From positions 1-19,721 of the forward strand of contig JAYVCD010000090.1 in assembly GCA_043750125.1 (NCBI GenBank): a DNA stretch of 19,721 nucleotides, written 5' to 3'. The DNA comes from Archangiaceae bacterium (GTDB lineage: Bacteria; Myxococcota; Myxococcia; Myxococcales; Myxococcaceae). A program made the position numbers and the translations under genes. The notes beneath the pieces were generated by a model that saw only the letters and a list, made by a program, of their open reading frames with translations, was not told where the DNA came from and searched no databases. Positions 1-17,085 of this stretch are shown one piece after another; position 1 is the stretch's first letter; each line of letters begins with the position of its first letter.

Positions 1-668
1 TCCTCGGCCGGGTGGACAGCCAGGTGAAGATTCGCGGTCTGCGCATCGAGCTGGGGGAAATCGTGACCACCCTCGAAGCGCATCCAGGCGTGCGCGAAGC
101 GGTGGTGATCGCCGATCGCGAAGGAATCGACCGGCGGCTCGTGGCGTATGTGGTCCCTGCGTCGAGTTTTCCACCGACGAGCTTTGAGCTGCGCGATCAC
201 CTGCGCCGGAAGCTTCCCGACTACATGATCCCCGCCGTCTTCGTGACGCTGCAGGCGCTTCCGTTGACCGCGGGCGGCAAGATCGACAGGCGGTCGCTGC
301 CTGCGCCCGACACGGATCGTCCCGATCTGGCCCAGCCGTTCGTCGCGCCGCGCACGGTCGCCGAAGATTGGGTGGCGAAAGTGTGGGTCGAAGTGCTCGG
401 CGTCGAGCGGGTCGGTGTGGACGACGACTTCTTCGAGCTGGGCGGTCACTCTTTGCGCGCAACCCAGCTCGTCTCCCGAATTCGCGAGCGGCTGCGGGTC
501 GAGCTGCCGCTGCGCAGCCTGTTTCAGCGCCCCACCGTGGCCGGAATCGTCGACGAGCTTGCCGCGCGCGCGGGCGGGAAGGACGCGCTCGAGGAAATCG
601 CACTTGCCGTCCGCGAAGTCGAAGGCCTGTCCGACGAAGAGGTCAGCAGGCTGCTCGAGCAAGGCTGA
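1..668 (+). CDS. NRPS, 3' end only (A-domain C-terminal subdomain, thiolation domain, C-terminal docking helix); 5'-truncated by window edge
   Basis: Frame is open from base 3. Motifs: A8 LGRVDSQVKIRGLRIELGEI, A9 LPDYMIP, A10 PLTAGGKIDR, PCP DDFFELGGHSL, acidic tail VEGLSDEEVSRLLEQG. Stop TGA at 666-668. Confidence 0.95.
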   Translation, partial: LGRVDSQVKIRGLRIELGEIVTTLEAHPGVREAVVIADREGIDRRLVAYVVPASSFPPTSFELRDHLRRKLPDYMIPAVFVTLQALPLTAGGKIDRRSLPAPDTDRPDLAQPFVAPRTVAEDWVAKVWVEVLGVERVGVDDDFFELGGHSLRATQLVSRIRERLRVELPLRSLFQRPTVAGIVDELAARAGGKDALEEIALAVREVEGLSDEEVSRLLEQG

Positions 669-676
669 CCTTTGCT

Positions 677-690
677 AAAGAGCGTCCATG
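677..690 (+). promoter_or_regulatory. Putative ribosome-binding site and original ATG of the methyltransferase (5' exon of the intron)
   Basis: AAAGAG (677-682), a 5-nt spacer, then ATG at 688-690. This lies 19 nt after the NRPS stop and directly before the intron 5' end GTGCG. Confidence 0.55.
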
Positions 691-861
691 GTGCGTCGTG
701 AAGACTCAGAGCCAGCGGGAGCGCGAGCGACCGAAAGGGCGCAGTCACGCTGCACTTCACCAGCGGGCGAAAATCCCGTCCGGGTAATCGCCGGAGAGCC
801 CGGTAGCAGGCCACCACCTGAAGCAGAGATGCCGACTGGTGAAGCGTGGCGTCAAGAGCCG

Positions 862-1411
862 CTGGCTGAGGTCGAGGTGTACGGCGTGGAACGCATGCTC
901 ACCGAGGTGCAGGAAGCGCTGAAGGAAGGACGGTACCGGGCACCTGCTGTGCTGCGCCGGTACATCTCGAAGGCAGATGGGAAGAAGCGCCCGCTGGGCA
1001 TTCCGACGGTGCGGGACAGGGTGGTGCAAGCGGCGGTGAAGCTGATTCTGGAGCCGGTATTCGAAGCGGACTTCAAAGAGTCCTCTTATGGATTCCGGCG
1101 CGAAGCGCAGCGCCACGGGCGCGCTGGAGAAACTGCGGGTAGAAGGCGCGCGAGGCGGAAACCACGTCCTCGACGCCGACATCCGCGATTACTTCGGCAG
1201 CATCAACCACGACCCGTTGCTGAAGTTGGTGGCGCGACGAGTCGTAGACCGAAAGGTGCTGAAGCTGGTGCGGCCGTGGCTGCGTGCGGGTGTGCTGGAC
1301 GACGGAAAGCTGACGACACCGACGGTGGGTACGCCACAGGGTGGAGTCATCTTCGAGCACCACGGACTTGTCCGACTCAAAGGCCAAATCCACTATCCGG
1401 AGGCTGTGTAA
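862..1411 (+). pseudogene. ltrA: Group II intron reverse transcriptase/maturase remnant (frameshift and deletions; no YADD)
   Basis: First frame: [60 protein letters not shown]. Frameshift at about 1099-1102. Second frame: KRSA...[15 protein letters not shown]...GTPQGGVI, joined directly to a C-terminal-like [21 protein letters not shown]5-7, the X domain and the N-terminus are absent. Confidence 0.92.
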
Positions 1412-1436
1412 TGCGACCAACCGAAACTCCACCGGT

Positions 1437-1530
1437 AAGCCGTATGCGGGAAATCCGCACGTACGGTTTGAACGGGGGTCTTGCCTCAAACTTCAGGTCT
1501 TTCAACCCGCTGTAAGAGGCAAGATCTACC
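1437..1530 (+). ncRNA. Group II intron catalytic domains V and VI
   Basis: DV is AAGCCGTATGCGGGAAATCCGCACGTACGGTTT, with the AGC triad at 1438-1440, a GAAA loop and the AC bulge. The DVI stem GGGGGTCTTGCCTC (1474-1487) pairs with GAGGCAAGATCT-A-CC (1516-1530), leaving A1528 unpaired. Confidence 0.93.
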
Positions 1531-1531
1531 C

Positions 1532-2464
1532 ATGCCGCTTCAAGCCCTGCTCGAATGGAACACGCTGGTCGGTGAGATTTACGGAACAGAAGACAAGTCA
1601 CTCTTCTATTACTCGCTGGTCAAGATGCAGAAGCCCGAGAACATTCTCGAGCTGGGCACCGGGCTTGGAGTGTCCGCCTTCTGGATGGCTCAGGCGGTCA
1701 AAGAGAACCGCGTCGGTCACGTCTTTACCGTCGACAACGGTGAGCAGTGGAACGACGCGGTCGAGCTCTACGGGGTCAAGACCAAGAGCGCGCTGGCGTA
1801 CTTCGAGCGGCTGAAAGCCAACCCGCGTTTTGTCCCGGTTTTCTTTTCGGCCCCGGACCAGCCGGCCGACTACTTCAGCGCGATGGACCGCGCGACGGCG
1901 CTGTTGGGGATCACCGAGCAACTCACGCTGCTGAAGGGCTCGGTGTCGCTGCTCGACACCAAAGAAGTGACCGCGCAAACCGAGCCGCTGCTTGCGCCTG
2001 TCCTCAGCCGGCCGATCGACTTGTTGTTTGCCGACATCTACCACGGCCCCTGGGCCTGCCTGTCGTTGCTCGCGAAGTACCTGCCGTTGATGGCCGAATA
2101 CGGGTCCATCTTCATCGATTCGGCACCGACCCAGCTCGTCGCCTACCTGGCGCTCGAGCAGGTGATCGGGCAGCTCAATGCTGGCAAGGTTCCGGCGTTT
2201 TTCAACGCGGGCACCACCGAAGCGCAGCAGGCGCGCCTGGTGAAGTTGATTGCGTCGCGGCGCTTCACGCTGGTTCCGCTGGTCGAGAAGAAGAACCGCG
2301 ACCAGAACGGGTTCGCCTGGATCCGGATCGAGCCGGTCAACATCTTGCCGTACCCGTTGAGCGCGATGCGGGGGCTCGCAGAAGACCAGCCGCGACTGAG
2401 CGTTCCGGGGCACGCGATCGAAACCGCGATGCGCACCGGCCTCGCCGGGCCGATGATCAAATAA
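1532..2464 (+). CDS. Class I SAM-dependent methyltransferase (Methyltransf_24-like), probable NRPS tailoring enzyme
   Basis: SAM motif I ILELGTGLGVS, then VFTVDN and DLLFADIYHG. Start placed at ATG 1532 because the upstream ORF extension lies within intron domain VI. Confidence 0.82.
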   Translation: MPLQALLEWNTLVGEIYGTEDKSLFYYSLVKMQKPENILELGTGLGVSAFWMAQAVKENRVGHVFTVDNGEQWNDAVELYGVKTKSALAYFERLKANPRFVPVFFSAPDQPADYFSAMDRATALLGITEQLTLLKGSVSLLDTKEVTAQTEPLLAPVLSRPIDLLFADIYHGPWACLSLLAKYLPLMAEYGSIFIDSAPTQLVAYLALEQVIGQLNAGKVPAFFNAGTTEAQQARLVKLIASRRFTLVPLVEKKNRDQNGFAWIRIEPVNILPYPLSAMRGLAEDQPRLSVPGHAIETAMRTGLAGPMIK

Positions 2465-2507
2465 CCGCTCGGCGGGACGAGGTCGGCCGCTGTTAGGCTG
2501 GCCGCTC

Positions 2508-4112
2508 TTGGTCCGACTTCTATTCAAGACTTCCGGGCGGCTAATCGTATTGGCAGCGTTGGCGTCGGTCGTCGCGGGCGCCAGCACCACCTTGTTGATT
2601 GCGACCATCAACGGCACGCTGCGCAGTCAACAGGGGCCCAATTGGTTTGTCTTTCTGGGGCTGTGCCTGACGATGTTCGTGATGGAAATGGTCAGCCGCG
2701 TGCTGCTCATTCGGCTCTCGCAGCGGTGCCTGTTTCAGATGAGAACCCACCTGTCTGAGCAGCTGCTCGCAGCCCCTTTGAGCAAGCTCGAAGAGGTCGG
2801 GCCGAACCATGTTTTTTATCTGCTCGGCAGCAGCATCAACGAGATCCTCACTGCGATCATGAATTTCCCCGCGGTGCTCACCCATGCAGCGGTGATCCTC
2901 GGGGGCCTGGTTTACGTCTTCGTGCTCTGGCCTCCGGCGGGATTCGTGATTGTCGTGACTGGGGTAGGGGCGGTGACCATTTCTCGTCGGCTTCACCGCC
3001 GGGGGCTGCGAGACCTGTTCAGCCACAGCCACCAGGAACAAGAGGTGTTCAATCTTTTCCGCGGGATGGTCGACGGCGCCAAAGAGCTGAAGCTGCACCG
3101 GGCGCGGCGGGACGAATTTCGTGACCTTCTGGCCAATGTGATGAACGCGCTGCGTCTGGGGCAGACCCGGTCGATGAGCATTCTGGCCACCTCGCAGGCC
3201 TGGGGCGGGTCGTTCGTTTTCTTCATGCTCGGGTTTGGCCTGTACGCGCTGCCCAAGGTCTCGGATACGGGCTGGGGCGTGCTGGGCGGCTATGTGCTCG
3301 CCTGCCTCTTCCTCGCGCCGTCCACGGGCATCGTGCTCAACGGGCTTTCGATGATCACCCGGGCGGGCCTGGCAATTCAGAAGCTCGAAAACCTGGGCCT
3401 CTCGCTTCCCAGGGAATCAGCTTCGAATGGCGAAGCGTTGATCGCGCCCTGGAAAAAGATTGATCTGGCGCAAGTCACCTACACCTACGGTCTGAAAGGT
3501 GAGTCGGCCTTCACGCTCGGCCCGCTCGAGCTGTCTTTGAACCGGGGCGAAGTGCTCTTCCTGATTGGCGGCAACGGAAGTGGAAAGTCGACCCTCGCCA
3601 AGTTGCTCACCGGTCTCTACGTGCCGAGCTCCGGAGTGCTTCGCGTCGATGGAAAGCCGATCCTCGACGCAAACCGTGAAGAGTACCGACAGCTGTTCTC
3701 GGCCGTGTTTTCAGATTTCTACCTCTTCGATCGTCTGCTGGGCTCGGTAAATCCGGGACTCGACGCGGCGGCAGCTGACTATCTGGCGCGACTCGAGCTG
3801 ACTGCGAAGGTGACAGTCCAGGGCGGCCGATTCAGCACCCTGGCCCTTTCCCAGGGTCAGCGGAAGCGGCTCGCGTTGCTCTGCGCATTTCTGGAAAACC
3901 GCGACATCTACCTGTTCGATGAGTGGGCCGCCGACCAGGACCCCGAGTTCAAGAAGATCTTCTATCTGGGTCTGATCCCCGATCTGAAGAAGCTGGGAAA
4001 GACGGTGGTGGTGATCACCCACGACGATCGCTACTTCGCTTGCTGCGACCGGATCATCAAGCTCGAAAGCGGGCATTCCACCAGCTACGCCGCAGCGGCG
4101 ACCTCGGTATAA
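2508..4112 (+). CDS. Cyclic peptide export ABC transporter (PvdE/SyrD/YojI family; fused TMD and NBD)
   Basis: About 6 hydrophobic segments, family motif GAKELKLH, Walker A GGNGSGKST, signature LSQGQRKRLAL, Walker B region YLFDEWAADQDPEF, H-loop ITHD. The TTG start is uncertain. Confidence 0.93.
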   Translation: MVRLLFKTSGRLIVLAALASVVAGASTTLLIATINGTLRSQQGPNWFVFLGLCLTMFVMEMVSRVLLIRLSQRCLFQMRTHLSEQLLAAPLSKLEEVGPNHVFYLLGSSINEILTAIMNFPAVLTHAAVILGGLVYVFVLWPPAGFVIVVTGVGAVTISRRLHRRGLRDLFSHSHQEQEVFNLFRGMVDGAKELKLHRARRDEFRDLLANVMNALRLGQTRSMSILATSQAWGGSFVFFMLGFGLYALPKVSDTGWGVLGGYVLACLFLAPSTGIVLNGLSMITRAGLAIQKLENLGLSLPRESASNGEALIAPWKKIDLAQVTYTYGLKGESAFTLGPLELSLNRGEVLFLIGGNGSGKSTLAKLLTGLYVPSSGVLRVDGKPILDANREEYRQLFSAVFSDFYLFDRLLGSVNPGLDAAAADYLARLELTAKVTVQGGRFSTLALSQGQRKRLALLCAFLENRDIYLFDEWAADQDPEFKKIFYLGLIPDLKKLGKTVVVITHDDRYFACCDRIIKLESGHSTSYAAAATSV

Positions 4113-4123
4113 ACTCAAGGGAA

Positions 4124-7100
4124 ATGGGCAACGGCAGTCACTCGTTCGAGCGCGCAGCACTGCTCGACAAGATGTTGAAGAGAAAGGGAAGCATCGTCTC
4201 TGCGCGACCGCCCCTGTCACCGCGAGAACCGGGACTGCACTCGCCGTTGTCCTTTGCGCAGCAGCGAATCTGGTTCTTCGAGCAGCTCGAGCCCGGAACT
4301 GCGATTTACCACCTGCCCAGCCTCGACCGATTGCGGGGCGCTCTCGACCTGGTGATCCTCGAACGCAGCCTCAATGAGATTGTTCGCCGACATGAAGGTT
4401 TGCGGACCACGTTTCCTTCCGTCGACGGACAGCCGGTGCAGTGGGTCTCGGCGCCCTCGGCGATCCCCTTCACGGTCCTCGATCTCTCGAGCTTGCCGGC
4501 CGAGCGACGCGATCGCGCAGCGAAGGATGCAGTCACTGAGGAAAACCGACGCCCTTTCGACCTCTCGCGAGGGCCTTTGCTGCGGGCGACCGTGTTGCGC
4601 CTGGCTGCAGACGATCACCTGCTGTTGCTCGTCGTCCACCACATCGTGTTCGACGGCTGGTCGTCCGGCATTCTGTGGAACGAGCTCACCGCGCTCTACA
4701 CCGCGTTCTCGCAAGGACAGAGCTCACCGCTGCCCGAGCTCGCGATTCAGTACCCGGACTTCGCGACGTGGCAGCGAAGTTGGTTGGTCGGCAAGCCCCT
4801 CGAGGGGCAGCTGGGGTACTGGAAAGAGCGGCTCGCAGGCGCACTGCCCCGACTCGAAGTGCCTTCGGATCTTCCGCGGCCGGCGACGCCTTCGTATCGA
4901 GGCGGGTCCGCCGAGCGCGTTCTGTCTGGGTCGGTCTTTCAGGGGCTGCAGCTGCTGAGTCGGGGCGAGGGCGCGACCCAGTTCATGGTGATGCTCGCGG
5001 CCTTCGAGCTGCTGCTCCACCGCCACACGGGCCAGGAAGATCTGGTGATCGGGGCCCCGGTCGCCAATCGCAACCAGCGGGAAATCGAGCCGGTGATTGG
5101 GTTCTTCGTCAACACCCTGGTGCTGCGAACAGATCTCTCGGGCAACCCCACCTTCCGTGAGCTGCTCAGTCGAGTGCGCGGGGCCTCGCTGGGCGGCTAC
5201 GACCACCAGGACCTCCCGTTCGACAAGCTGGTCGAAGAGCTCAACCCCGATCGCACCCCCGGTGAGAACCCGCTGGTCGATGTGTTGGTGAACCACTACG
5301 TCAACGATGCGCAGGGCGTTGCGTTCGCGGGCATCACCCGACTGCCGCAGCCTCCGCCCGACGAAGAATCGAAGTTCAAGCTCAGTGTGCATCTGCTGCT
5401 CGAGGGGGACCAACTGAGGGTGGTCTGGGTCTATCGGGAGGACATTTTCTCTGCGACGCAGATCGATGTGCTGATGGATCAGTACGTTCACCTCGTCGAG
5501 CAGGCCGTGCAGGACCCCGGGAAATTGATTGGGGACTACAGCCTGGTGACCCCCTCGGCGCGGGCGGTGCTGCCTGACCCGACCCAAGCCTTCGATGAGC
5601 CACGGCACGAACCGATTCCGGCGCAGGTCGCAGCTGTTGCCGCGCGGTACCCCGACGTGCCTGCGCTTCGCTTCGGCGGAAAGGAGCTCAGCTACGCCCA
5701 GTTTGCCCAGCGCATTGATCAGCTGGCGCATGCACTGCTCGCGCGCGGTGCGTCGCGCGGTGGGACCGTGGCGATCCTCGGGCCGCGCAGTGCGGGCCAG
5801 GTCATTGCGATGGCCGCGGTGCTGCGCGCGGGTGGAGTGCTGCTCACCGTCGACCCGAAGTACCCGCCCGAACGGCAAAGCCTGATGCTGCGCGAAGCGG
5901 TCGCGACCCATGTCGTGTACGTGGGAAACCGGCGCCCCGAAGACGCCTGGCTCGATCAGAGCAAGCTGCCGGTGCTCGAGCTCGAGCTCGAAGGAACGGT
6001 CGGCCCAGGTGAGGACCTGACCCTCGCTGGAAAACCACTGCCCGACCTTTCCCCCGACGACTCGGCCTATGTGTTTTTTACCTCGGGGACGACAGGCGTG
6101 CCCAAGGCGGTTCGCGGCCTGCACAAGGGCCTGTCCCACTTCGTCGATTGGCAGCGCGAGACCTTCGCGATCGGGCCCGGAGATCGTTCCGCGCAGCTGA
6201 CCGGGCTGTCTTTCGACGTGCTCCTGCGCGACGTTTTCACCCCCCTGGCCAGTGGCGCGACTCTGTGCCTGCCCGAAGAAGAGGAGCTGAGCCCCGAAAC
6301 GCTGGGCTGGCTCGACCGCGAGGGAATCACGCTGCTGCACAGCGTCCCTTCGCTGCTGCAGTCCTGGCTGACTTCGCCCGCTCACACAGTGACTCTCGCC
6401 CGGCTGCGGTGGATCTTCTCAGCCGGCGAGCCGCTGACCCAGACGCTCGTTCGACGCTGGCGGAAGGCCTTTCCTGGCCCGGGGGGCATCGCCAACTTCT
6501 ACGGTCCAACCGAGACTTCGCTTGCGAAATTCTGCTACCGCGTTCCGAACGATCCCTTGCCCGGCGCGCAGCCGGTGGGCCGACCCCTTCCCCAGACTCA
6601 AGGGTTGGTCTTGAACCGCGCCGGTCAGCTGTGCGGAGTGGGCGAGCCGGGAGACGTTGCGATTCGAACTCCTTTCCGCACTGCCGGATACGCCAACTCG
6701 CTCGAAGAGACGCGCCGGCGATTCGTGCAGAACCCCTTTCGTTCCCAACTGGGCGACTTGCTGTATCTGACCGGTGATCGCGGGCGTTACCGTCCTGACG
6801 GGTTGCTCGAGCTGCTGGGGCGCAATGACGATCAGGTGAAAATCCGCGGCATTCGCATCGAGCCCGCAGAGCTCGAGGCCGCGTTGCTGGGTCACCCGGA
6901 CGTTCGGGCCGCAGCGGTGGTCGCCCGAGAAGACAGCCCGGGCGACAAACGCCTGGTCGCGTACCTGGTCCCCGCTGAAGGAGCCGGCGTTTCGCTGACC
7001 GAGGTCCGCGCGTTCCTGTCCCAACGGTTGCCCGAGCACTTGGTTCCTTCGGCGATCGTCGTGATCTCCGCGCTGCCGTTGACCCCTAACGGGAAGCTCG

Positions 7101-8737
7101 ATCGAAAGGCGTTGCCCGCGCCGAGCGCTGCCCCGGCCGCCTCAGCGCTCGACCGTTCGCCGCGCACTGAGGACGAAGAGGTATTGGTGGCGCTGTGGGC
7201 CCAGGTGCTCGACGCAACCGAAGTGGGCGTGCACGACAGCTTCTTCGCACTCGGCGGTCATTCGCTGCTCGCGATCCGAATGGTCGCCCGCATTCGCGAA
7301 ATCTTCCGGGTGAACTTCGGGGTGCGCGACCTGTTTGCCGCTCCCACCGTGGCTGGAGTCGCCCGGCGGATGAAAGTGCTCGGCCGCCTGGGTCGAGGAG
7401 AGCAACCGCCCCTCGCGATTCGACCCCCGGGCGAGTTGTTGCGTGCGTCTTTCTCGCAAGAGACCACCTGGCGCAACGTTCAGCTGTCGCCCACTTCCCC
7501 CCACTTCAATTGTCTGCTGGCCTGGAGGTTCCGGGGACCGCTGGACGTGGCGGTGCTCGAGCGGAGCATCAACGAGATCATCAGGCGCCACGACTCCCTT
7601 CGAACGACCTTCGAATGTGTCGGCGAGGCTTTGATGGCCCGCATTGCGCCGCACCTGGGTTGCTCGTTGCCCGTGGTCGACCTGGAATCGCGGGCGGACG
7701 GCGAGGCGACTTTCCAACGGCTCGTGACCGAAGACTGCCAACGCCTGTTCGACCTGCCGTCGCGCGCGCCCCCCTACCGTTCGACCCTTTATCGGCTCGC
7801 TGGGGACCACCATCTGTTCACCGCGATCTTCCACCACATCATCTGTGATGGATCCTCGCTGGGGCTGTTCTCTGAAGAGCTGGGCGAGCTCTATCCGGCA
7901 TTCGCCGCCGGACGAGCTTCGCCGCTGTCCGAGCTGCCTTTTCAGTTCACCGACTTCGCTCACTGGCAACGAACCTACCTGGACGCCGCGGCGCTCGAGC
8001 TTCGCCTGACCGCGTGGCGAAAACGGCTGGCCGGTTGTCCCAATCTGAAGCTCCCGACCGACCGGCCCCGCCTGGCCACGGGTGCGCTGAGCGCTCGACA
8101 GCAATCATTTCGGCTCACCGACGAGCTTGCGCTGGGCCTCGAGGAAGTCAGCCTTCGCCAAGCGAGCACTCAGTTCATCACACTGCTGGCGGTGTTTGCC
8201 GTCCTGCTGCGCCACCTGACCCAGCAACAAGATCTCTTCATGGGCGCCTGGGCGAGCACCCGTCGCGCCGAGGTCGAGCGGGTCTTCGGAATGTTCATCA
8301 CCCTCTCGCCGCTGCGCATCGATGCTTCGGGCGACCCGACCTTTGCCGAACTGCTCGCTCGGGTCCGCGACACCGTGCTCGAAGCCAACGACGATCGCGA
8401 GGTGCCCACCTGGCAGGCGATTCCCTCCGGGCTCGAAACCTCACTCACTTTGAACAATGCCTTCGAAGGCGTTTCGCTCAACACCCGGTGGGGTCCAGAG
8501 CTCACCGCCGAGAAGGTGGTCCCCGACACGGGACACCGCGGGCTGCGCACCGACCTGCAATGGACGGCTGACTTCTCGGACGCCGGGACCCAGGTGTCGC
8601 TGGTGTACTCCTCGCTGTTCGACGAGGCGACGATCGCCCGTTGGCTCGGCCAGTATCGCGCGCTCGCAGCCCTGTGCTTTGCGCAGCCTGAAAGTCCGCT
8701 CTCGGTGCTCCTCGATCGGCTCACCGCTTCCCCATGA
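4124..8737 (+). CDS. NRPS, single module C-A-T-C (about 1537 aa), no TE or reductase
   Basis: C1: LSFAQQRIWF and HHIVFDGWS (about 4637). A domain: YVFFTSGTTGVPK, FYGPTE, YLTGD, GRNDDQVKIRG, PNGKLDR. PCP: FFALGGHSL (Ser at about 7262). C2: HHIICDGSS (about 7832). ATG 4124 follows AAGGGA, 11 nt after the ABC transporter stop. Confidence 0.95.
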   Translation: MGNGSHSFERAALLDKMLKRKGSIVSARPPLSPREPGLHSPLSFAQQRIWFFEQLEPGTAIYHLPSLDRLRGALDLVILERSLNEIVRRHEGLRTTFPSVDGQPVQWVSAPSAIPFTVLDLSSLPAERRDRAAKDAVTEENRRPFDLSRGPLLRATVLRLAADDHLLLLVVHHIVFDGWSSGILWNELTALYTAFSQGQSSPLPELAIQYPDFATWQRSWLVGKPLEGQLGYWKERLAGALPRLEVPSDLPRPATPSYRGGSAERVLSGSVFQGLQLLSRGEGATQFMVMLAAFELLLHRHTGQEDLVIGAPVANRNQREIEPVIGFFVNTLVLRTDLSGNPTFRELLSRVRGASLGGYDHQDLPFDKLVEELNPDRTPGENPLVDVLVNHYVNDAQGVAFAGITRLPQPPPDEESKFKLSVHLLLEGDQLRVVWVYREDIFSATQIDVLMDQYVHLVEQAVQDPGKLIGDYSLVTPSARAVLPDPTQAFDEPRHEPIPAQVAAVAARYPDVPALRFGGKELSYAQFAQRIDQLAHALLARGASRGGTVAILGPRSAGQVIAMAAVLRAGGVLLTVDPKYPPERQSLMLREAVATHVVYVGNRRPEDAWLDQSKLPVLELELEGTVGPGEDLTLAGKPLPDLSPDDSAYVFFTSGTTGVPKAVRGLHKGLSHFVDWQRETFAIGPGDRSAQLTGLSFDVLLRDVFTPLASGATLCLPEEEELSPETLGWLDREGITLLHSVPSLLQSWLTSPAHTVTLARLRWIFSAGEPLTQTLVRRWRKAFPGPGGIANFYGPTETSLAKFCYRVPNDPLPGAQPVGRPLPQTQGLVLNRAGQLCGVGEPGDVAIRTPFRTAGYANSLEETRRRFVQNPFRSQLGDLLYLTGDRGRYRPDGLLELLGRNDDQVKIRGIRIEPAELEAALLGHPDVRAAAVVAREDSPGDKRLVAYLVPAEGAGVSLTEVRAFLSQRLPEHLVPSAIVVISALPLTPNGKLDRKALPAPSAAPAASALDRSPRTEDEEVLVALWAQVLDATEVGVHDSFFALGGHSLLAIRMVARIREIFRVNFGVRDLFAAPTVAGVARRMKVLGRLGRGEQPPLAIRPPGELLRASFSQETTWRNVQLSPTSPHFNCLLAWRFRGPLDVAVLERSINEIIRRHDSLRTTFECVGEALMARIAPHLGCSLPVVDLESRADGEATFQRLVTEDCQRLFDLPSRAPPYRSTLYRLAGDHHLFTAIFHHIICDGSSLGLFSEELGELYPAFAAGRASPLSELPFQFTDFAHWQRTYLDAAALELRLTAWRKRLAGCPNLKLPTDRPRLATGALSARQQSFRLTDELALGLEEVSLRQASTQFITLLAVFAVLLRHLTQQQDLFMGAWASTRRAEVERVFGMFITLSPLRIDASGDPTFAELLARVRDTVLEANDDREVPTWQAIPSGLETSLTLNNAFEGVSLNTRWGPELTAEKVVPDTGHRGLRTDLQWTADFSDAGTQVSLVYSSLFDEATIARWLGQYRALAALCFAQPESPLSVLLDRLTASP

Positions 8738-8771
8738 GCACGGATCCCAATAGTCGGGGCAGGCGCTGCTG

Positions 8772-10373
8772 ATGATCGAGACGGTCGACGGGCTTTTTCG
8801 AGAGTCGGTCAGGCACTTTCCTGATCGCATTTTTCTTCGGCATCTGACCGCCCACGGCACCACCTCCATCACCTACGCCCAGGCGGCGGTGCGGGTAGCG
8901 GGCAGCGTTCGAAGGCTTGCCGATGCGGGCCTGGCACCGGGCTCGCGCGCCGTGGCCTGCGCCGATGCGATGGTCGACTCGGTCTTCTTGTTCATCGCCT
9001 GTGCCCACGCGGGCGTGGTGTTGGCTCCGCTGTCCCCCAGCTCTTCAATCGAGATGGTTCGAAGTCTGCAACACCACGTCGATGCCCGAGCCGTCTTCGC
9101 CAGCGCCCCTGACGTTCCGCGGCTGAGCGCAGCAGGGCTGGCGCCGACCGCGCTGGGGCCGCCCCTGGAATTTGAGCTCGATCTGCCCGCGGCCCTGAAG
9201 CTGCTCGAGCAGGCAGGGCAGGGGCACTCGGCGGACTCGGTCTACATGCTCCAGCCCACGTCCGGCACCACCGCCCAGCCCAAGCTGGTGATTCGTTCCC
9301 ACCGCGCCTTCAGTCGGGCCGCGCGAATGCTTTCGGGAAACCTCTTCGCCGCCGACGCGCCCGCCCAGCGGGTGCTGATGGTCGCCGCCCTCACCCACGG
9401 AATGGGGCAGTACCTGCTCTCGATCGGGTTGACGCTGGCGGCCGAGTTCTGCGTTCCCGAGAAGAGCGACACCGCGGCCTCACTGCCTCAAGTGCGGCAG
9501 CTCGACCCGACCTACATCGTGCTCACCCCTCGGGTGCTTCGCTCGTTCGTCGATCAGCAGGCGGCCCTCGAAGGTCCCACCCCTTCGCGGCCCCTGTTCG
9601 GTCCGGGCGCGCGCTTGCTCAACATCGGCGGCGCCGAGTGCGATCCCGTTCTGATGCGCAGGGTCTCGGCGCAGGGCCTGGAGGTCAAGGTCGCTTACGG
9701 GGCGAGCGAGATCTCAGTGGTATCGATTACCGAGCCGGGCCAATGGAAGGAAGGATCTGCCGGAAAGATTCTCCCCGACGTCGAGCTGAAGATCGCCGAC
9801 GACGGAGAGTTGTTGGCGAAGACTCCGGTGATGATGGTCGGCTACCACGGAGCGCAGGCCCTCACCGAGCAGGCGTTTACTGCCGATGGCTTCTACCAAA
9901 CCGGGGACTTCGCCGAGATTACCGAGGACGGCGAGCTGCGGATCCTCGGACGCAAGCGTGACGTCTTCAACACCTTCGACGGCTCGAACATCTTCCCCGG
10001 TCGAATCGAGACGATGATCGAGACCCTTCCCTGGGTATCCCAGGCGGTCCTGGTGGGCGATCAACGGCCGTTTCTGACTGCGCTGCTGGTGATCAAAGAC
10101 TCGACCCAGGCGGGCGACGCGCGGCGATTGGGTCAGCTCGACGAGCAGAAATTCGCCTCCCTCTACTCGCGCGCCTATTCGGACCTGGCCCCGATCAACG
10201 CTTCGAACGAAGCAAACGAACGGGTACTCCGGGTCGTGCTGTTTGATCGCGCGATGGCTTCCGAGCTGTACGCGATCGTCGGGCACGGAAAGACGAAAAG
10301 GGACCGGGCGAAAATCGTGCAGGCCTATGCCGGCTCGATCTCCGAGCTCTATCCGACGGGCAAGCCCGCTTAG
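8772..10373 (+). CDS. AMP-dependent acyl-CoA synthetase/ligase (long-chain fatty acid-CoA ligase-like)
   Basis: P-loop variant QPTSGTTAQPK, AYGASE, DGFYQTGD, ILGRKRD, and VLVGDQRPFLTALLV typical of the long-chain ligase C-terminal domain. Terminal Lys motif HGKTKR. Confidence 0.88.
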   Translation: MIETVDGLFRESVRHFPDRIFLRHLTAHGTTSITYAQAAVRVAGSVRRLADAGLAPGSRAVACADAMVDSVFLFIACAHAGVVLAPLSPSSSIEMVRSLQHHVDARAVFASAPDVPRLSAAGLAPTALGPPLEFELDLPAALKLLEQAGQGHSADSVYMLQPTSGTTAQPKLVIRSHRAFSRAARMLSGNLFAADAPAQRVLMVAALTHGMGQYLLSIGLTLAAEFCVPEKSDTAASLPQVRQLDPTYIVLTPRVLRSFVDQQAALEGPTPSRPLFGPGARLLNIGGAECDPVLMRRVSAQGLEVKVAYGASEISVVSITEPGQWKEGSAGKILPDVELKIADDGELLAKTPVMMVGYHGAQALTEQAFTADGFYQTGDFAEITEDGELRILGRKRDVFNTFDGSNIFPGRIETMIETLPWVSQAVLVGDQRPFLTALLVIKDSTQAGDARRLGQLDEQKFASLYSRAYSDLAPINASNEANERVLRVVLFDRAMASELYAIVGHGKTKRDRAKIVQAYAGSISELYPTGKPA

Positions 10374-10390
10374 GCCGAAATTTCAGAATG

Positions 10391-12340
10391 TCACAGCGGC
10401 CCTTCGCCGCCGGCCAGCCGACGGGTACGAACCGCGGCAGCCGCCAACGCCACCTCTCGAACCGTCCGGGAACCGGGATCGAGGACCTGGGTGGGCGCGA
10501 TCAGCGAATCGACCACCGCGTCCGACGAACCGGGCGCGATCCATGAGTCCACCGCAGTGACTTCTGCGAAGGCCCGGGGCTGCAGAGGCTGCCCCAGCCT
10601 CGTCGCGCAGCAGGCCAGTGCCAAAACTTTGGCGCCGATCGCCGGACCCAGGGCCGGTCGGAGCACCACCGCTCCTGTGGCACGTGCCTGGTCGACCACC
10701 GATCGGCTGACGGGGGTTCGGCCGCAAAGGACGACGGTGTCGCGCGGACCCACGGTGCCTGTCCACCCCGCGCCGGACACGGCGACGATTACCTTCGGCG
10801 ATGCAGGGCAGGGCGTCCCCGATTGCGAGGTCACGCCCCGCTCACGCAGACGCCATTGGACAGAAGCGCGAGTCTCTTCATCGAGATCGCCCAGCCACAC
10901 CAACTGGCCGTCGGCCGCGCAGGCCGCAGCCAGATCGGCGGTGGCATCGGCGCACAATGCGTCGAACGGGTAGGCGAGCCGCAGCTCGGCTTTGGGCTCG
11001 ACGGCCAGGTTAAGTCGGGGGTCGATCAGCAGCACATTGATCAGGCGATCCTGCTTGGCCGCTTCAGCCGACAGTGCAGTGACCGGCAGCGTCAACCCGA
11101 CATAGTCGCCCGTTTCCCAAGGCAGCGGAGCGGCGAAGGGGAACGTCGCTGCCGCGACGAGGTGCAGCACGCTGGGCTTGTGTCGCTTTTCGGAACGGAC
11201 GAACAACGACTCGACAGCTGTGGACAAATCGACCCGGCTGTCCCGTTCGATGCCCAGAGCGACCCTTTCGACCACCCCTTGGGGAACTGCGCCGATTGAA
11301 GAGGGGGGGGTCTGCTCGCAAAGCGCGTCGACCAGCGCCTCGGGCAGCGCGTTCTTCGAAATCAGGTTGCGCGCGTTGACTTCGGCCCCCACCAACCGGA
11401 GCAGCTCGCGGGGGGAACGGCCCCGCTGCTTTGCGACCCGAACCAGGTTGGCCACGTGACGCGAATGCAGGCGGGCCGTGCCCGAAACGAAATGGGTGGG
11501 GTCATTGCCCCTTTCGGCGAACAACGAACGCGACATCTCACCCATTGAGAGGATGGTGTCGCGATCGACCTGAAGCTCGTGGCCCAGACGCTGAAGCAAC
11601 AACAGCAGCTGTTCGGTGGGTGGATTTCCGGTCGCGCGGCCGATGCCCTGCAACGAGCTGTCGACCAAAGTCGCCCCGGCTTCGATTGCCGCGAGGCTGT
11701 TGGCCACGGCGAGGCCGATGTTGTTGTGGGCATGGAGGCCGACGGTCATTCCGCTCGCGTCTCTCACCGCTCGAACGTATTCCCGGACTTCGCTGGTGGT
11801 CATTCCTCCGGCGGAATCCACGATGTAGAACCAGTCGGCTCCGCGTTTGGCGGCGTCCGCGGCGCCTGCCGCGACCTCGCTGACCGACAGCGTGTACGTC
11901 TGCATCAAGTTGAGCGAGACGATCAGCCCTTGAGACTTGGCTTCGTCGATGTATTCGGGGCAGAGGGTGAAGCCGTCATCGGGCCACAGCGCGAGCCGGA
12001 CGAAGCCCATGCCATACTTGCTCAGCTTGCGAATTTCCTGGGCCGGAGTGAAGCCTCGCCCTGTTCCCAGCAGCACTCCCCAGATGGCGTTCTTCACCAC
12101 CGCCTGCGCGGCTTCCATGTGGGCCTGGTCGTCGGCGGTCGCGCGTACTTTCGGGCGGAAGGGCGGCTGATGGTACTGCTCAGAGCCGATGCCGTGGCTG
12201 TGGCAGACCTCGATGTACTTCACCCCCGCCGCGTCCAGCATTCCCGCGATGTACGCGGTGTCTTCAGCGGTGAATTGAGAAAGGATCTCGTAGCTGCCGT
12301 CGCGAAGAGTGGTCTCGAAAAGATGAACCGGTTCGCTCAT
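10391..12340 (-). CDS. DRE-TIM metallolyase (4-hydroxy-2-oxovalerate aldolase-like) with a C-terminal extension of about 300 aa of unknown function
   Basis: ETTLRDGSY, YIEVCHSHGIG, FYIVDSAGGM, metal-binding GLHAHNNIGLAVANSLAAIEAGA and DSSLQGIGRATGN follow the DmpG/BphI pattern. 649 aa versus about 340 aa for DmpG. Confidence 0.85.
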   Translation of the reverse strand: MSEPVHLFETTLRDGSYEILSQFTAEDTAYIAGMLDAAGVKYIEVCHSHGIGSEQYHQPPFRPKVRATADDQAHMEAAQAVVKNAIWGVLLGTGRGFTPAQEIRKLSKYGMGFVRLALWPDDGFTLCPEYIDEAKSQGLIVSLNLMQTYTLSVSEVAAGAADAAKRGADWFYIVDSAGGMTTSEVREYVRAVRDASGMTVGLHAHNNIGLAVANSLAAIEAGATLVDSSLQGIGRATGNPPTEQLLLLLQRLGHELQVDRDTILSMGEMSRSLFAERGNDPTHFVSGTARLHSRHVANLVRVAKQRGRSPRELLRLVGAEVNARNLISKNALPEALVDALCEQTPPSSIGAVPQGVVERVALGIERDSRVDLSTAVESLFVRSEKRHKPSVLHLVAAATFPFAAPLPWETGDYVGLTLPVTALSAEAAKQDRLINVLLIDPRLNLAVEPKAELRLAYPFDALCADATADLAAACAADGQLVWLGDLDEETRASVQWRLRERGVTSQSGTPCPASPKVIVAVSGAGWTGTVGPRDTVVLCGRTPVSRSVVDQARATGAVVLRPALGPAIGAKVLALACCATRLGQPLQPRAFAEVTAVDSWIAPGSSDAVVDSLIAPTQVLDPGSRTVREVALAAAAVRTRRLAGGEGPL

Positions 12341-12416
12341 GAATTACCGAGCCTAACGCGGGCGGATTGCCGCGCGAAAGTATTGGGCGCTCGGCGCCGA
12401 CTGACTGACTGCTTTT

Positions 12417-13772
12417 TCAGGTGGGTGTTGCGGCTACAGGAATGAAGGTCGATCGCCGAGCGCTGATCACCAGCGAGGACGCGCTGCGCAGCGTGATTCC
12501 ACCCAGCTGGCCCCCGTAGTTGTACAGCCCGACCGACAGAGATTCCCCATTGGGCAGGCGCCGGGGCCGGTAGAAATCCTGGAGCACCCAGTTGGGGTCG
12601 GACCAGATCTCTTCCATCCGCTTCGACCATTCGTCCGGGGGTGTCTCGCGGCCGATGACGACTCCGTGCGCCCCTCCGGACTGGCAAGGCTTGAGCAGCA
12701 GGCCTTCGCGCCGTGAGGTGGCGTCGGCGACGCTCAGCACGCCTCCCCGGCGTTCCTCTGAGCTGTAGGTGCGTGCGACGTGGTCGCTGAGCCATCGACG
12801 GTCCTCGTCCCCCAGGAAGCGGTCCGCACGGTGGATCCAGGACAGCAGGTGCTTGGACAGCGCGAGGTAACTTTTGACCGGTGAAATGTTGATCACGTCT
12901 CGGCGCTTGAACAGCTCGAGGGCCAATGGGTTCTGGAGCACCGCGGCGGTCGCTTCGGGGGCTCCGACGAAGTCGAACTTGGTGGCGAACTGGGTCTGGA
13001 CGTACCGCTGAAATTGAAAGCCCAGGTAGAAGACGATGTCGCCCCACAGAATGTCGATCGGGGTTCCCCGAAGCCTCATTTGACCGGGCAAGATCTCGAG
13101 GTCCGCGGGGCGACCTTCGACGTAGCCCCACCCCAGCTCTTTGAAGGCGGGGCGCAGGGCCACCCGGACCGAACGCAACATCCGCGGCAGGGTGAAGATC
13201 CCGATTGTGGGATCCGAGCGGGGCCGCGCGGGCCGCTGACTCAAGTAGTGCCGTTGGAACGCTTGGGTCATCAGTCGGTAGAGGGAATAGACGTGCTCGG
13301 CGTCCTGGTTCAGCCCCTCACGCCCCAGGGCGCGTGACAGGTAGGTCACCGCGCGCAGATGCACGGTCGAGACTCCGACCGCGTTGATTTCGATGACCCG
13401 CAGCTCGCCGTCCTGGGTGAGCACGCAGTCCAGGCGTGAGAGGGGCAGCGGCATCGGGGTCGCGCGGTCGGCTTCGATCGCCGCGTCGAACATCGGGTTG
13501 CTCAGGTACTCGGGCCGCCGCGCCGGGCTTCGATAATATTCTTCAATCACCTTCCCGTAGAAGGCATCGAAGCGGGCCACCACTTCCCGGCAGCGCTCGA
13601 GCAGTTTTCCGTCGATCAGCTGCGGAGGGCCCAGCACCGTGGCCAGACCATCTGAGTTCAAGTACGGGCGGCCGGTGATGCGCCGCTGCACCCGCGACCA
13701 GCCGTCGGGGTCCCGCTGGAGGTCGGGGGTCAGCCGGATGTCGGGAATCTGCAGGTTGAACAGCGGCGTCAT
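12417..13772 (-). CDS. ATP-grasp amide ligase, glutathionylspermidine synthase / circularly permuted ATP-grasp-like
   Basis: SRLDCVLTQDGELRVIEINAVG (R-x-D...E-x-N), LLLKPCQSGGAHGVVIG, WVLQDFY. ATG at 13772 preferred over TTG at 13799. Confidence 0.75.
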   Translation of the reverse strand: MTPLFNLQIPDIRLTPDLQRDPDGWSRVQRRITGRPYLNSDGLATVLGPPQLIDGKLLERCREVVARFDAFYGKVIEEYYRSPARRPEYLSNPMFDAAIEADRATPMPLPLSRLDCVLTQDGELRVIEINAVGVSTVHLRAVTYLSRALGREGLNQDAEHVYSLYRLMTQAFQRHYLSQRPARPRSDPTIGIFTLPRMLRSVRVALRPAFKELGWGYVEGRPADLEILPGQMRLRGTPIDILWGDIVFYLGFQFQRYVQTQFATKFDFVGAPEATAAVLQNPLALELFKRRDVINISPVKSYLALSKHLLSWIHRADRFLGDEDRRWLSDHVARTYSSEERRGGVLSVADATSRREGLLLKPCQSGGAHGVVIGRETPPDEWSKRMEEIWSDPNWVLQDFYRPRRLPNGESLSVGLYNYGGQLGGITLRSASSLVISARRSTFIPVAATPT

Positions 13773-13894
13773 GGACACTCGAGGTTCGCGGGCAAGCAAC
13801 CGATGCTGGCCGATTTCTCAAACGCTGGAAAGGTCTGCCTCAAAAGGCGCCCCAGCCAACGCGACCCGGGCAGGTGCTAGCCTGTGCTTGCCTC

Positions 13895-14866
13895 GTGACT
13901 CTGATCCGGATTCCAAAAACGTGGGAACTGCCGTCGTCGGCGGTCACTCCGGAACGGACCTACTTGAATCGCAGGCAGCTGATCGCTGGGCTCGGTTTGG
14001 CTGGCCTCAGTCCCTTGCTGGGAGGCTGCTACCTGACGGTAGAGCCGGACCCGAACAGCCTGCCGCCGAAGCCGCCTTCTGGATTTCTGGGCGACCTTTA
14101 CCCCGCGCCGCGAAACTTCACGTTTCATCCGGATCGAGACCTTTCAAGCCAATACCAGGCGACCCATTTCAACAACTTCTACGAGTTCACGTCGAACAAG
14201 GGCAGCGTCTGGCGCACGGTCAACGACTTCGTCATTGCTCCGTGGACACTGGAAGTCAGCGGGCTGGTTCAAAAACCCCAGGTCTTCGATCTCGAGAAGT
14301 TGATCAGGTCGCTCTCGCTGGAAGAACGGCAGTACCGGTTTCGGTGCGTCGAAGCATGGTCGATGACCGTGCCGTGGACCGGGTTTTCGTTGTCTCGATT
14401 GCTGGGCCTGGTTCAGCCGCTGTCATCAGCGCGATTCGTGAGATTCATTTCGGCAGCCAATCCGGATCAGATGCCCGGGGTGGCCAACTTCAGCCACATG
14501 CCCTGGCCGTACTTCGAGGGACTTCGACTCGACGAGGCGATGAACGAGTTGACGCTGCTGGCCACCGGCATCTACGGAGCGCCCCTTCCGGCACAAAACG
14601 GCGCGCCGGTGCGGCTCGTGGTGCCCTGGAAGTACGGCTACAAGAGCATCAAGTCGATCGTGAAAATCGAGCTGGTCGCCGAGCAGCCTTCGTCGTTCTG
14701 GAGCCAGAGCAACCCCGCCGAGTATGATTTCTGGTCCAACGTGAACCCGAATGTTCCGCACCCGCGATGGTCCCAGGCCACTGAGCAGCTGATCGACGGC
14801 GGCCCGCGAATCGCGACCCAGCTCTACAATGGCTATGGGGATTCTGTCGCTGCGCTGTATGCCTGA
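13895..14866 (+). CDS. msrP: Protein-methionine-sulfoxide reductase catalytic subunit MsrP (molybdoenzyme)
   Basis: N-terminal VTPERTYLNRRQLI (twin-Arg), NNFYEF, RFRCVEAWSM (Mo-ligating Cys), NGAPVRLVVPWKYGYKSIKSIVKI, NVNPNVPHPRWSQATE, YNGYG. Start is uncertain (GTG 13895 or 13874). Confidence 0.95.
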   Translation: MTLIRIPKTWELPSSAVTPERTYLNRRQLIAGLGLAGLSPLLGGCYLTVEPDPNSLPPKPPSGFLGDLYPAPRNFTFHPDRDLSSQYQATHFNNFYEFTSNKGSVWRTVNDFVIAPWTLEVSGLVQKPQVFDLEKLIRSLSLEERQYRFRCVEAWSMTVPWTGFSLSRLLGLVQPLSSARFVRFISAANPDQMPGVANFSHMPWPYFEGLRLDEAMNELTLLATGIYGAPLPAQNGAPVRLVVPWKYGYKSIKSIVKIELVAEQPSSFWSQSNPAEYDFWSNVNPNVPHPRWSQATEQLIDGGPRIATQLYNGYGDSVAALYA

Positions 14867-15749
14867 AGCTGGCTCCCTTCACGCTTGTCTGCTGCGCAAG
14901 ACCCTTCTGGTGGGCGCCGCCTGGGTGGGAATGGTCTTCCCGACCGGTGCGAGCGCGGGCGCCTGGATTCGCGAGCCGGGCCACTTCTTTGCGAAGGTAG
15001 GGGCGAACTTTTCATCGGCGTACGACCCGGTGAATGAGCCGGTCGGTCTCGAGCAGCAGGTGATGGCCTTTTCGCTGTTCGCGGAAGTCGGGCTTCCCTA
15101 CCGAATGGACCTGGTGGTGGACGTTCCCTACGTGGTCGCGACGAATGGGTTCAGATCAGAGGCCCGTTACGACAACCACTCTTTCGGTGACGCCCACATT
15201 CAGCTCGACCGCGGGCTGTTTTCCCGGCTGCAGCTGACTGCCGCTCTGGACCTCAAGGTTCCGATGTACCGAACGCTGAGCGCGACCGCGACGACCGGAC
15301 TGGTGGAGATCAACCACAAGATCTACCCCAGCTCGAGCTTCCCGGAAGTGGGCAACGGGACCGTCGAGCTGACCCCCAAGCTGCTCTACGGGAAGTCGTT
15401 CAACCCCCGTCCCCTCTGGTTCACCGCCGAGCTCGGGGCCCGACTGCGTTTTGGTGGGTTGGCGCAGGGGCTCTACGCTTCGGCCGGCTCGGGGGCGTGG
15501 GTCTGGCCCGAGCACCTGGCGTTGGCGCTGTACGGCAGCGTGGCCTACAACTTCAGTTCCCGAGCCTCCGCGCTCAGGCCGAGCGGGGAAGATGCCCAGT
15601 ACGCGGTGTACTTCGGCGGCTCGGTGATCGTCTCGGGGGCCCCGTGGCTTCCCTGGCTCAAGATCTTCGGGTCGGCGGGAACCCTGTTGCTCGAGTCCAA
15701 ATCCAAAACCGGAACCGATTTTGGAGTGGGCGTGGCCGTCGAGTACTGA
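14859..15749 (+). CDS. Secreted protein, probable outer-membrane beta-barrel
   Basis: ATG overlaps the msrP stop (ATGCCTGA). Signal peptide ending ASA-GAW. Alternating amphipathic beta-strand patterns (FSLFAEVGL, LTAALDLKVP, WFTAELGARLR) and a C-terminal aromatic residue (FGVGVAVEY). Confidence 0.6.
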   Translation: MPEAGSLHACLLRKTLLVGAAWVGMVFPTGASAGAWIREPGHFFAKVGANFSSAYDPVNEPVGLEQQVMAFSLFAEVGLPYRMDLVVDVPYVVATNGFRSEARYDNHSFGDAHIQLDRGLFSRLQLTAALDLKVPMYRTLSATATTGLVEINHKIYPSSSFPEVGNGTVELTPKLLYGKSFNPRPLWFTAELGARLRFGGLAQGLYASAGSGAWVWPEHLALALYGSVAYNFSSRASALRPSGEDAQYAVYFGGSVIVSGAPWLPWLKIFGSAGTLLLESKSKTGTDFGVGVAVEY

Positions 15750-15771
15750 TCGGCGGCGTTGGGATGAGCTC

Positions 15772-16341: not shown

Positions 16342-16390
16342 TATGCTTGAGGGTGCCGGTGAACGGAAGGATCAATGTTCTCAATGGCTC

Positions 16391-16987: not shown

Positions 16988-17039
16988 GGCTTGTCTCTTA
17001 GCACCGGATTCCCGGTTCGAGCCTGAAGCGCGGCCTCGA

Positions 17040-17085
17040 GAAAAGAAGAAGGCCCGGCTCGCAGCTTTGCGCGAACCGGGCCTTC
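17040..17085 (-). terminator. Rho-independent terminator downstream of the lipoprotein gene
   Basis: GAAGGCCCGG (17048-17057) and CCGGGCCTTC (17076-17085) form a perfect 10-bp inverted repeat with further inner pairing. On the minus strand it is followed by TTCTTTTC, and it starts 24 nt after the stop at 17110. Confidence 0.8.

Follow-up and report, generated by a model that had tools for sequence, protein, structure and literature searches.

Spliceosomal introns are presumed to descend from group II introns, which also serve as programmable gene-targeting tools. The element described here touches on a central question about group II introns, namely how they pick sites at which they do little harm. 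Introns of a monophyletic IIB1/CL1 clade lie at start or stop codons in proteobacteria (Avi.groEL, EcKTE56.groEL), as Gomes et al. (2025; PMC12584367) describe with reference to Michel et al. (2007). According to the same work, all members of the clade carry a 300-700-nucleotide (nt) subdomain Ia near the 5' end, and the groEL intron converts UAA into UAG, regenerating the signal (PMC12584367). Group IIC-attC introns with outward-facing internal promoters are described by Leon et al. (2010; PMC3001079), and RmInt1 is reported to be guided to replication forks via the beta-clamp (PMC12584367, PMC8914252). Here we analyze a 19,721-nt stretch of DNA, hereafter the window, from an Archangiaceae bacterium (GenBank assembly GCA_043750125.1, contig JAYVCD010000090.1, forward strand), in which positions 691-1534 carry the remnant of a group II intron directly behind the start codon of a methyltransferase gene.

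We think it probable that this remnant belongs, as a decayed copy without autonomy, to a mobile group II lineage that homes to start codons and ends in a start codon of its own, with an IIB-like ribozyme and a reverse transcriptase (RT)/maturase that lacks an endonuclease domain. Covariation among the copies shows that the lineage inserts between the start codon and the second codon of its targets, which are read through predicted pairings of 4 bp with exon-binding site 1 (EBS1) and 1 bp with EBS3. In the window, the ATG at 688-690 is followed directly by GTGCG (691-695), and the right junction reads ...GATCT-A(1528)-CCC-ATG(1532-1534) and then CCGCTT; CCATG thus stands at both ends of the insertion (686-690 and 1530-1534). 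The ATG at 688-690 is separated by 19 nt from the stop codon TGA (666-668) of an upstream nonribosomal peptide synthetase (NRPS) gene. These coordinates and junctions, first proposed in a sequence-only reading of the window, held when we read the sequence again, and both junctions are bridged with 0 differences by Logan contigs from three DNA runs. Contigs of DNA runs X1, X2, X3 and X5 contained no joint skipping 691-1534, an absence that proves nothing. Two Rfam models match within the element: RF02003 (group-II-D1D4-4) at 761-896, with 73.6 bits against a cut-off of 49, and RF00029 (Intron_gpII, domains V/VI) at 1435-1511, with 48.9 bits against a cut-off of 40.

The genome to which the window belongs is a 460-contig assembly, 89% complete, and many of its contigs end inside copies of the element. 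All six 5' ends found in it (C90, C3, C79, C317, C318, C319) read ATG followed by GTGCGTCGTGAAG, with unrelated upstream flanks, and all ten 3' ends (C90, C46, C167, C427, C363, C362, C134, C2, C439, C298) read ...ACC-N-ATG before unrelated sequence. Frames longer than 100 codons start at seven of these ten terminal ATGs, and several of them encode lipoprotein-type signal peptides; the remaining three are 81, 37 and 6 codons long. Chance would not produce junctions this uniform. With the RT of the C167 copy (P0002) as query, we fetched 80 loci of relatives from one-genome-per-species contigs, mostly from Myxococcota and Acidimicrobiia/Actinomycetota, in both of which the lineage is abundant. 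Once L029 (cut at a contig end) and L058:1275 (a nested internal hit) were dropped, 68 unique 5' junctions remained (62 of relatives, 6 of the window's own genome), and all ended in RTG (R, purine), with 44 ATG and 24 GTG. An independent sample, a search of 151 Myxococcota genomes with RF02003, added six copies (five in the complete genome G048 and one in G181), each of which reads C-ATG followed by GTGCGTC. Pooled, 74 of 74 5' junctions have ATG or GTG before [G/T]TGCGTC. The 3' ends, which across the family read C(U/C)ACC-N-RUG, are ATG or GTG in 58/58 rows of relatives, 10/10 copies of the own genome and 6/6 further copies (74/74).

This junction trait belongs to the lineage and not to the Rfam family, since RF02003-positive introns in G205, G150, G069, G056 and G120 have other 5' ends and none of them lies at a start codon; in 14 control genomes RF02003 had no match (0/14). 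Sibling copies within one genome can differ in the 5' triplet and share the 3' triplet (L031, GTG/ATG, versus L033, ATG/ATG; also L046 versus L047), indicating that the 5' triplet is target DNA and the 3' triplet is intron-borne. On the same grounds we rejected a target-site duplication. Intron 5' ends read GTGCG, GTGTG or TTGCG across the family, and the GTGCG of the window fits GUGYG (Y, pyrimidine). The first base of group II introns is normally conserved as G; 23 of the 63 rows of relatives, among them L038, L046, L054 and whole multi-copy sublineages, begin TTGCG and have U as first intron base. The RT of the C167 copy contains the domains RVT_1 (3.4e-36) and GIIM (7.5e-14), no endonuclease domain and nothing after GIIM, and its closest solved relative is the GsI-IIC RT (1e-53).

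To relate ribozyme to target, each column of the first 620 intron bases in 57 aligned full-length copies was compared with every flank position. The Y of the loop GCCG-CU-CAY-GU-CACGGC is complementary to position -3 in 57/57 copies (T-A 34, C-G 16, T-G 7) and is the sole column to reach 100% for -3; the next column fits -4 at 95%. We take this loop as EBS1 (CAYN, four bases, ~270 nt into the intron), which is predicted to pair with the start codon and the preceding base (N-R-U-G, -4 to -1). Its fourth base pairs with -4 in 56/60 copies, and position -5 pairs in merely 17/60. Introns with a CAC EBS1 occur at GTG (16) and not at ATG (0), and those with CAT have ATG in 37 cases and, through a wobble pair, GTG in 7. 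This covariation of EBS1 with its intron-binding site (IBS1) places the 5' splice site after the start codon. At the other end, one intron base, the N of CGGGGUA[N]GGGG, complements whichever base directly follows the terminal RTG, in 56/56 copies (T-A 22, G-C 14, C-G 13, A-T 4, T-G 3), and the six further copies fit as well; this EBS3-IBS3 covariation places the 3' splice site after the G, so the intron ends in AUG or GUG. A first automatic scan for columns covarying with the 3' triplet found nothing; EBS1 was then spotted by eye in the alignment and confirmed by the scan. The start codon is read by a C-U-C-A-U loop (for example at intron ~nt 230 of L057), a pentamer that we take to form the 5' side of the anticodon loop in initiator tRNA as well; the likeness is probably a convergence on AUG pairing.

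The sequence-only reading had claimed that the intron ends in AUG and not in AY, and that it targets initiation codons. Both claims are borne out, the former by the five types of EBS3 pair and the latter by the uniform 5' junctions, the covariation of EBS1 with the codon and an empty site in the same genus (see below). The departure from the canonical AY end lies inside the family and gives no ground for excluding it from group II introns. A 5' GUGYG and a match to the domain V/VI model are present, as is, in relatives, an RT with a maturase domain in domain IV, of which the window holds only a frameshifted fragment. Binding sites for both exons likewise occur in full-length relatives and are deleted in the window copy.

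We also examined the sequence upstream of the targeted start codons. TANNNT (N, any base) lies 6 nt (42 sites) or 7 nt (20 sites) upstream in 62 of the 68 sites, 8 nt upstream in three and 9 nt in one, and is absent from two; the five sites of G048 have spacings of 7-8 nt. Other RTG triplets in the same flanks served as controls, and the hexamer precedes 36 of these 12245 (0.29%). No hairpin signal was found upstream: the 40 nt before the site fold at -11.78 kcal/mol versus -11.86 in controls, and a IIC-like upstream hairpin target was rejected on this equality. No column of the first 620 nt fits positions -5 to -21, and EBS2-type pairing with hexamer or spacer was not found. The gene downstream of the C134 copy encodes a 2-hydroxyacid dehydrogenase with an 85% identical ortholog in G004, a genome of the same genus, where the site is empty: this locus (L101) has only one ATG (hexamer-N8-ATG-CGC-GTG-CTC). 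The end of contig C318 of the window's genome, itself a 5'-junction contig, is homologous to the sequence upstream of it. Fourteen further orthologs of the gene start at the same ATG, and orthologs in other genera have the hexamer or a GGAGG-type Shine-Dalgarno (SD) sequence at that place. From established promoter knowledge, this -10-like hexamer makes the targets look like leaderless gene starts, in which the hexamer would be the -10 element and transcription would start at or next to the start codon. The hexamer may be sensed in homing or may only be selected afterwards. In the window, the AAAGAG (677-682) that had been read as a ribosome-binding site overlaps the slot in which family targets have their -10-like TANNNT.

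That an element reading five bases lands almost exclusively on promoter-proximal start codons suggests a targeting cue beyond base pairing, possibly transcription initiation. By covariation, EBS1 pairs with N-R-U-G of the target and one EBS3 nucleotide with the first base of codon 2, and the last three intron bases are a start codon (ATG; GTG in some GTG-specific lineages). With TANNNT 6-8 nt upstream of nearly all targets, only 3 nt of 5' exon would precede the intron, which would begin near +4 of the transcript. As a tentative proposal, with the balance of probability not in its favor, we raise that this is a distinct lineage whose homing site is the junction of codons 1 and 2 in leaderless genes; it would find its sites through the transcription-initiation context and bring a spare start codon for unspliced expression. 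Homing could proceed by reverse splicing into non-template DNA that becomes accessible when a promoter complex opens or begins to transcribe, or through contact of the RT with RNA polymerase or sigma. If the proposal is true, the spare start codon would make insertions nearly neutral, which would in turn account for many copies per genome and for long-lived dead copies such as that of the window.

The window copy is a dead remnant and almost certainly unable to splice, as judged by comparison with the full-length reference L017 (intron 1721-3743, 2023 nt, with a 478-amino-acid (aa) RT open reading frame (ORF)). It retains three blocks of that intron: bases 1-170 (89% identity), 780-1259 (~70%) and the last ~185. 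Two internal deletions took ~1.2 kb, and with it EBS1, EBS3, most of domains I-III and half of the RT. The first removed the EBS1 loop (L017 intron 268-286; the window has no EBS1-loop motif), EBS3 (~nt 337) and the remainder of domains I-III, and took the beginning of domain IV together with the initial ~74 codons of the RT; the second removed ~586 nt. The RT reading frame is lost near 1090. With these losses, which include the C-terminal half of the RT, self-splicing of this copy is very unlikely. The sequence-only reading had pictured the intron without this decay. An architecture in which domains I-III span only ~140-190 nt and the RT starts at 829 was rejected, as full-length relatives reveal the 609-nt deletion there. 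Sequence and fold point to A1528, the seventh base from the 3' end, as the presumed bulged branch adenosine, and the retained 5' part includes a Myxococcota-specific extra hairpin of ~45 nt.

How, then, might the interrupted gene be expressed? The occupied allele still reads a start codon and an intact ORF at its 3' junction. The sequence-only reading held that the host gene remains translatable without splicing, and this claim survives as plausible and indirectly supported, though not beyond that: the terminal triplet is always a start codon, and three of four splicing-incompetent copies precede intact, domain-bearing ORFs. The four copies that lack the 5' part or core and keep the 3' end are those of the window, L045, L089 and C46, and the intact ORFs follow the first three (310 aa with Methyltransf_24, 497 aa with DMFA2_C and 265 aa with ECH_1, respectively). 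Use of the intron-borne ATG is likely. If the window's methyltransferase is made, its translation likely begins at that codon, ATG 1532, on operon RNA that has not been spliced. Initiation there might be aided by the SD-like AAGAGG at 1514-1519, or might follow from termination and reinitiation after the open frame at 688-1515, whose stop lies 16 nt upstream of the ATG. Folding of the domain VI stem over AAGAGG might gate this initiation, as the sequence-only reading suggested. Terminal GTG occurs solely in introns with a CAC EBS1 (8/16, versus 0/39 with CAT), and CAC introns occur only at GTG genes, as expected if the triplet must serve as the host start codon; the pattern also fits a pairing of the triplet with EBS1. 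No TANNNT precedes the terminal ATG in the 3' ends seen.

Several observations weigh against homing to leaderless starts and against the use of the intron-borne codon. The window's own site is atypical, with TAAAGA in the hexamer slot and a gene that follows the NRPS stop in an operon, with no obvious promoter. No intron-less allele of this locus was found among 100 family genomes, the sole homolog of the methyltransferase (G031, 45% identity) starting ~8 residues earlier and in a different context. The leaderless character of the targets is deduced from the hexamer and its spacing, and copies that share one genome are kin, so our junction counts overstate the number of independent events. The dead copy C46 is followed only by a 37-codon frame; 8 of 16 CAC introns retain a terminal ATG, and the triplet does not strictly track EBS1. 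AAGAGG, at 12 nt from ATG 1532, has a long spacing for an SD sequence, is half buried in the domain VI stem and is absent from most of the family, a purine run at this position occurring only in the window's subfamily (window, C46, L027, L156). A look for RNA runs that contain the locus returned none. A rather unlikely alternative, to which the window's operon site and imperfect hexamer lend some weight, is that TANNNT is a DNA recognition element of the intron ribonucleoprotein, or a by-product of insertion survival, in which case no working -10 element is present and the targets need not be leaderless. The C at -4 could be taken for a start-site pyrimidine at -1, but pairing with EBS1 accounts for it, a point in favor of this alternative. 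However, no ribozyme column covaries with -5 to -21, the spacing of 6 to 9 nt varies like promoter-to-start distances and unlike a fixed molecular ruler, and the orthologs of the C134 gene elsewhere have the hexamer or a GGAGG-type SD in this place. Only the T, A and T of the hexamer are fixed, and these are the most conserved part of -10 elements. The placement of the splice sites has a competitor as well, in which the intron sits between the second and third bases of the start codon (AU/G...AU/G), has a canonical AY end and starts G-GUGCG or G-UUGCG, as in groEL stop-codon introns. This boundary yields identical ligated exons, would let the preceding G be intron base 1 in the 23 of 63 rows that begin TTGCG, and parallels the groEL intron between stop-codon positions 2 and 3 as described in PMC12584367. 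We regard it as highly improbable and reject it because EBS3 covaries with the base after the G in 56/56 copies, not with the invariant G; EBS1 CAYN, moreover, pairs with the whole of N-R-U-G.

Two further explanations concern the terminal codon, for which we favor a role as start codon of the host gene. The terminal AUG or GUG may instead be a ribozyme requirement, an internal IBS1 mimic that pairs with EBS1 in splicing or reverse splicing, its identity as a start codon being secondary to the target. Consistent with such a mimic, the triplet is complementary to EBS1 in 47/55 copies (CAT/ATG 39, CAC/GTG 8), GTG termini occur only with a CAC EBS1, and in the window's subfamily the C before the triplet would pair with the fourth EBS1 base. 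We nonetheless consider it unlikely, as the ATG retained by half of the CAC introns would face EBS1 with a C-A mismatch, and dead copies keep their ATG before intact ORFs in three of four cases. EBS1 is also occupied by the 5' exon during exon ligation, and we know of no established step that needs pairing of the terminal triplet. Alternatively, the window remnant could be a polar insertion that silences or strongly lowers the methyltransferase, whose intact ORF would then reflect recent decay and not continued use. The poorly spaced and partly structured SD-like element would suit silencing, and C46 illustrates that the downstream frame can be short. Yet there was time enough for two large deletions and a frameshift while the 310-codon ORF and its domain stayed intact, and the downstream transporter and NRPS genes continue on the same strand; we thus hold silencing to be improbable. 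Our preferred interpretation remains that the terminal codon likely starts the methyltransferase ORF.

Table 1. Features of the window at and around the intron remnant (coordinates in the 19,721-nt window).
Feature	Coordinates	Strand	Basis or remark
Upstream NRPS gene, 3' end (adenylation C-terminal subdomain and carrier domain)	3..668	+	Pfam AMP-binding_C 1.1e-12, PP-binding 9.2e-18; stop TGA 666-668
TAAAGA, hexamer slot of the window site (-15..-10 from the insertion point)	676..681	+	One of the 2/68 sites without a perfect TANNNT
Predicted IBS1 (C + ATG: original methyltransferase start codon and preceding base, last four bases of the 5' exon)	687..690	+	EBS1 pairing in the family
Chimeric 275-codon open frame	688..1515	+	Runs from original ATG through remnant; TAA 1513-1515, 16 nt before ATG 1532
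Group II intron remnant, 844 nt (full-length relatives 1939-2035 nt)	691..1534	+	Rfam matches, alignment to relatives
Retained 5' part of ribozyme, 170 nt (GTGCG and start of domain I)	691..860	+	89% identity to L017 intron nt 1-170
Deletion junction 1, ~609 nt missing	860..870	+	L017 intron 171-779 has no window counterpart
RT fragment, DNA ~70% identical to full-length copies	870..1350	+	RT motifs; matches L017 intron 780-1259
Region with deletion junction 2, 87 nt versus ~673 nt in full-length copies (C-terminal half of RT/maturase)	1350..1437	+	Alignment
Domain V hairpin	1435..1472	+	Rfam RF00029; fold
Domain VI, long stem 1476-1487/1516-1527	1473..1531	+	Fold, z = -4.45
AAGAGG, SD-like	1514..1519	+	12 nt before ATG 1532; partly in 3' strand of domain VI stem
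Intron-borne ATG, final three intron bases and first codon of the present methyltransferase ORF	1532..1534	+	3' ends of the family
Methyltransferase gene, 310 aa, intact	1532..2464	+	Pfam Methyltransf_24 7.1e-12; opens at ATG 1532
Predicted IBS3, first base of the 3' exon (C of second codon CCG)	1535..1535	+	EBS3 covariation in relatives; the window's own EBS3 is deleted

The window is part of an NRPS cluster, with an ATP-binding cassette (ABC) transporter, a C-A-T NRPS module and an AMP-binding enzyme downstream on the same strand. The context at 2508-10373 and 10391-19622 comprises the ABC transporter, the NRPS module (C-A-T and a second condensation stretch) and the AMP-binding enzyme; within 2508-19622 there are also genes for an HMGL-like protein, a molybdopterin oxidoreductase and a LysR regulator, and three ORFs without a Pfam match. 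The chimeric frame at 688-1515 crosses the 5' part of the ribozyme and the RT fragment and may be a chance product of GC-rich DNA.

A number of further observations concern the family at large. In Myxococcota copies (L014, which is C167 1480-2694 on the minus strand, and L017:2279-3715) the RT frame crosses domain V into the loop of domain VI and stops 28 nt before the terminal ATG, and the Acidimicrobiia RT stops before domain V (L029 sequence). An extra hairpin of ~35-45 nt lies directly after GUGCGUCGUGA in copies from Myxococcota and Burkholderiales (window 702-756; L017 intron nt 12-56), and Acidimicrobiia copies are without it. Two within-genome pairs, L036/L074 and L061/L063, share the last 16-20 upstream bases (hexamer, spacer and start codon), but beyond these, and also in exon 2, their sequences diverge; the promoters may be paralogous, or a flank may have moved with the intron. 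The 2789-nt copy L058:944-3732 has a second 5'-end-like sequence (GTGTGTCC...) at 1275, perhaps the mark of a nested insertion (twintron), perhaps that of a tandem fragment. The 5'-truncated L089 (3709-3720) finishes in ...CTGACTACC-ATG, where its relatives have one more base (...ACCAATG), with the intact enoyl-CoA hydratase ORF directly after it, and C46:1716-2078 is a 5'-truncated copy of the window's subfamily. The window's genome also holds at least one different group II intron 3' end (G000:C46:593-668, RF00029 52.5 bits, ending ...CCTACTCAC) and another RT fragment (G000:C19:12356-12498).

An intron with its own start codon would be a compact case of a mobile element that buffers its host against the element's own insertion, and a transcription-initiation cue, if real, would be a new mobility strategy beside terminator, attC and replication-fork targeting. 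For annotation, the copies matter in Myxococcota and Acidimicrobiia, where they break assemblies and shift true gene starts by ~2 kb. In the biosynthetic cluster of the window, the intron-borne start would decide whether the tailoring methyltransferase is likely made.

In the literature searched, we found no work that connects group II introns to leaderless genes, to transcription start sites or to a start codon carried by the intron, although a prior description of the lineage is possible; nor did we meet there a promoter-proximal, leaderless-type target context or 4+1-bp recognition. The terms 'start codon', 'initiation codon' and 'ATG' are absent from the review of Zimmerly and Semper (2015). 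The IIB1 clade at start or stop codons is already published, and our lineage shares much with it as that work describes it (Gomes et al., 2025): it is mobile, specialized for translation signals and found at multiple housekeeping-type genes, it inserts at the initiation codon (here 74/74 sites, directly after it), and its insertion regenerates the signal, here as a second start codon. However, the present lineage lacks that clade's defining feature, the large subdomain Ia. Its 5' ribozyme part is ~560 nt (558 nt to the RT start in L017). All that is extra there is a ~45-nt hairpin (intron nt 12-56), present in Myxococcota copies and absent from those of Acidimicrobiia; this hairpin occupies the same 5'-subterminal place as the far larger subdomain Ia. 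The lineage also differs from the clade in its 478-aa RT without endonuclease domain, whose closest solved relative is a IIC RT, in its hosts (Myxococcota and Actinomycetota) and in its 4+1-bp pairing.

The likeness to group IIC introns lies in the endonuclease-less RT with the GsI-IIC RT as nearest solved relative, in the short pairing (3-4 bp for IBS1 and 1 bp for IBS3, here 4+1 bp, with no EBS2 found), in a context feature outside base pairing that adds specificity, and in the many copies per genome. Unlike in group IIC, that context is a -10-like hexamer and a start codon and not a terminator or attC hairpin, and the sites are gene starts. The 5' ribozyme part is larger, and domain V starts AAGCCG with an AGC triad, whereas a CGC triad is typical of IIC domain V. 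As in the IIC-attC introns of Leon et al. (2010), the intron provides an expression signal for the gene beyond its 3' end, although the signal there is an internal promoter and here a start codon at the extreme 3' end. RmInt1, as treated in PMC12584367 and PMC8914252, has long EBS1, EBS2 and EBS3 pairings and one cognate site, and no link to transcription initiation is described in them. What our lineage shares with RmInt1 is the lack of an endonuclease, and the choice of sites by RmInt1 through a host machine that exposes single-stranded DNA offers a model for how a group II intron might sense the context of promoter and start site.

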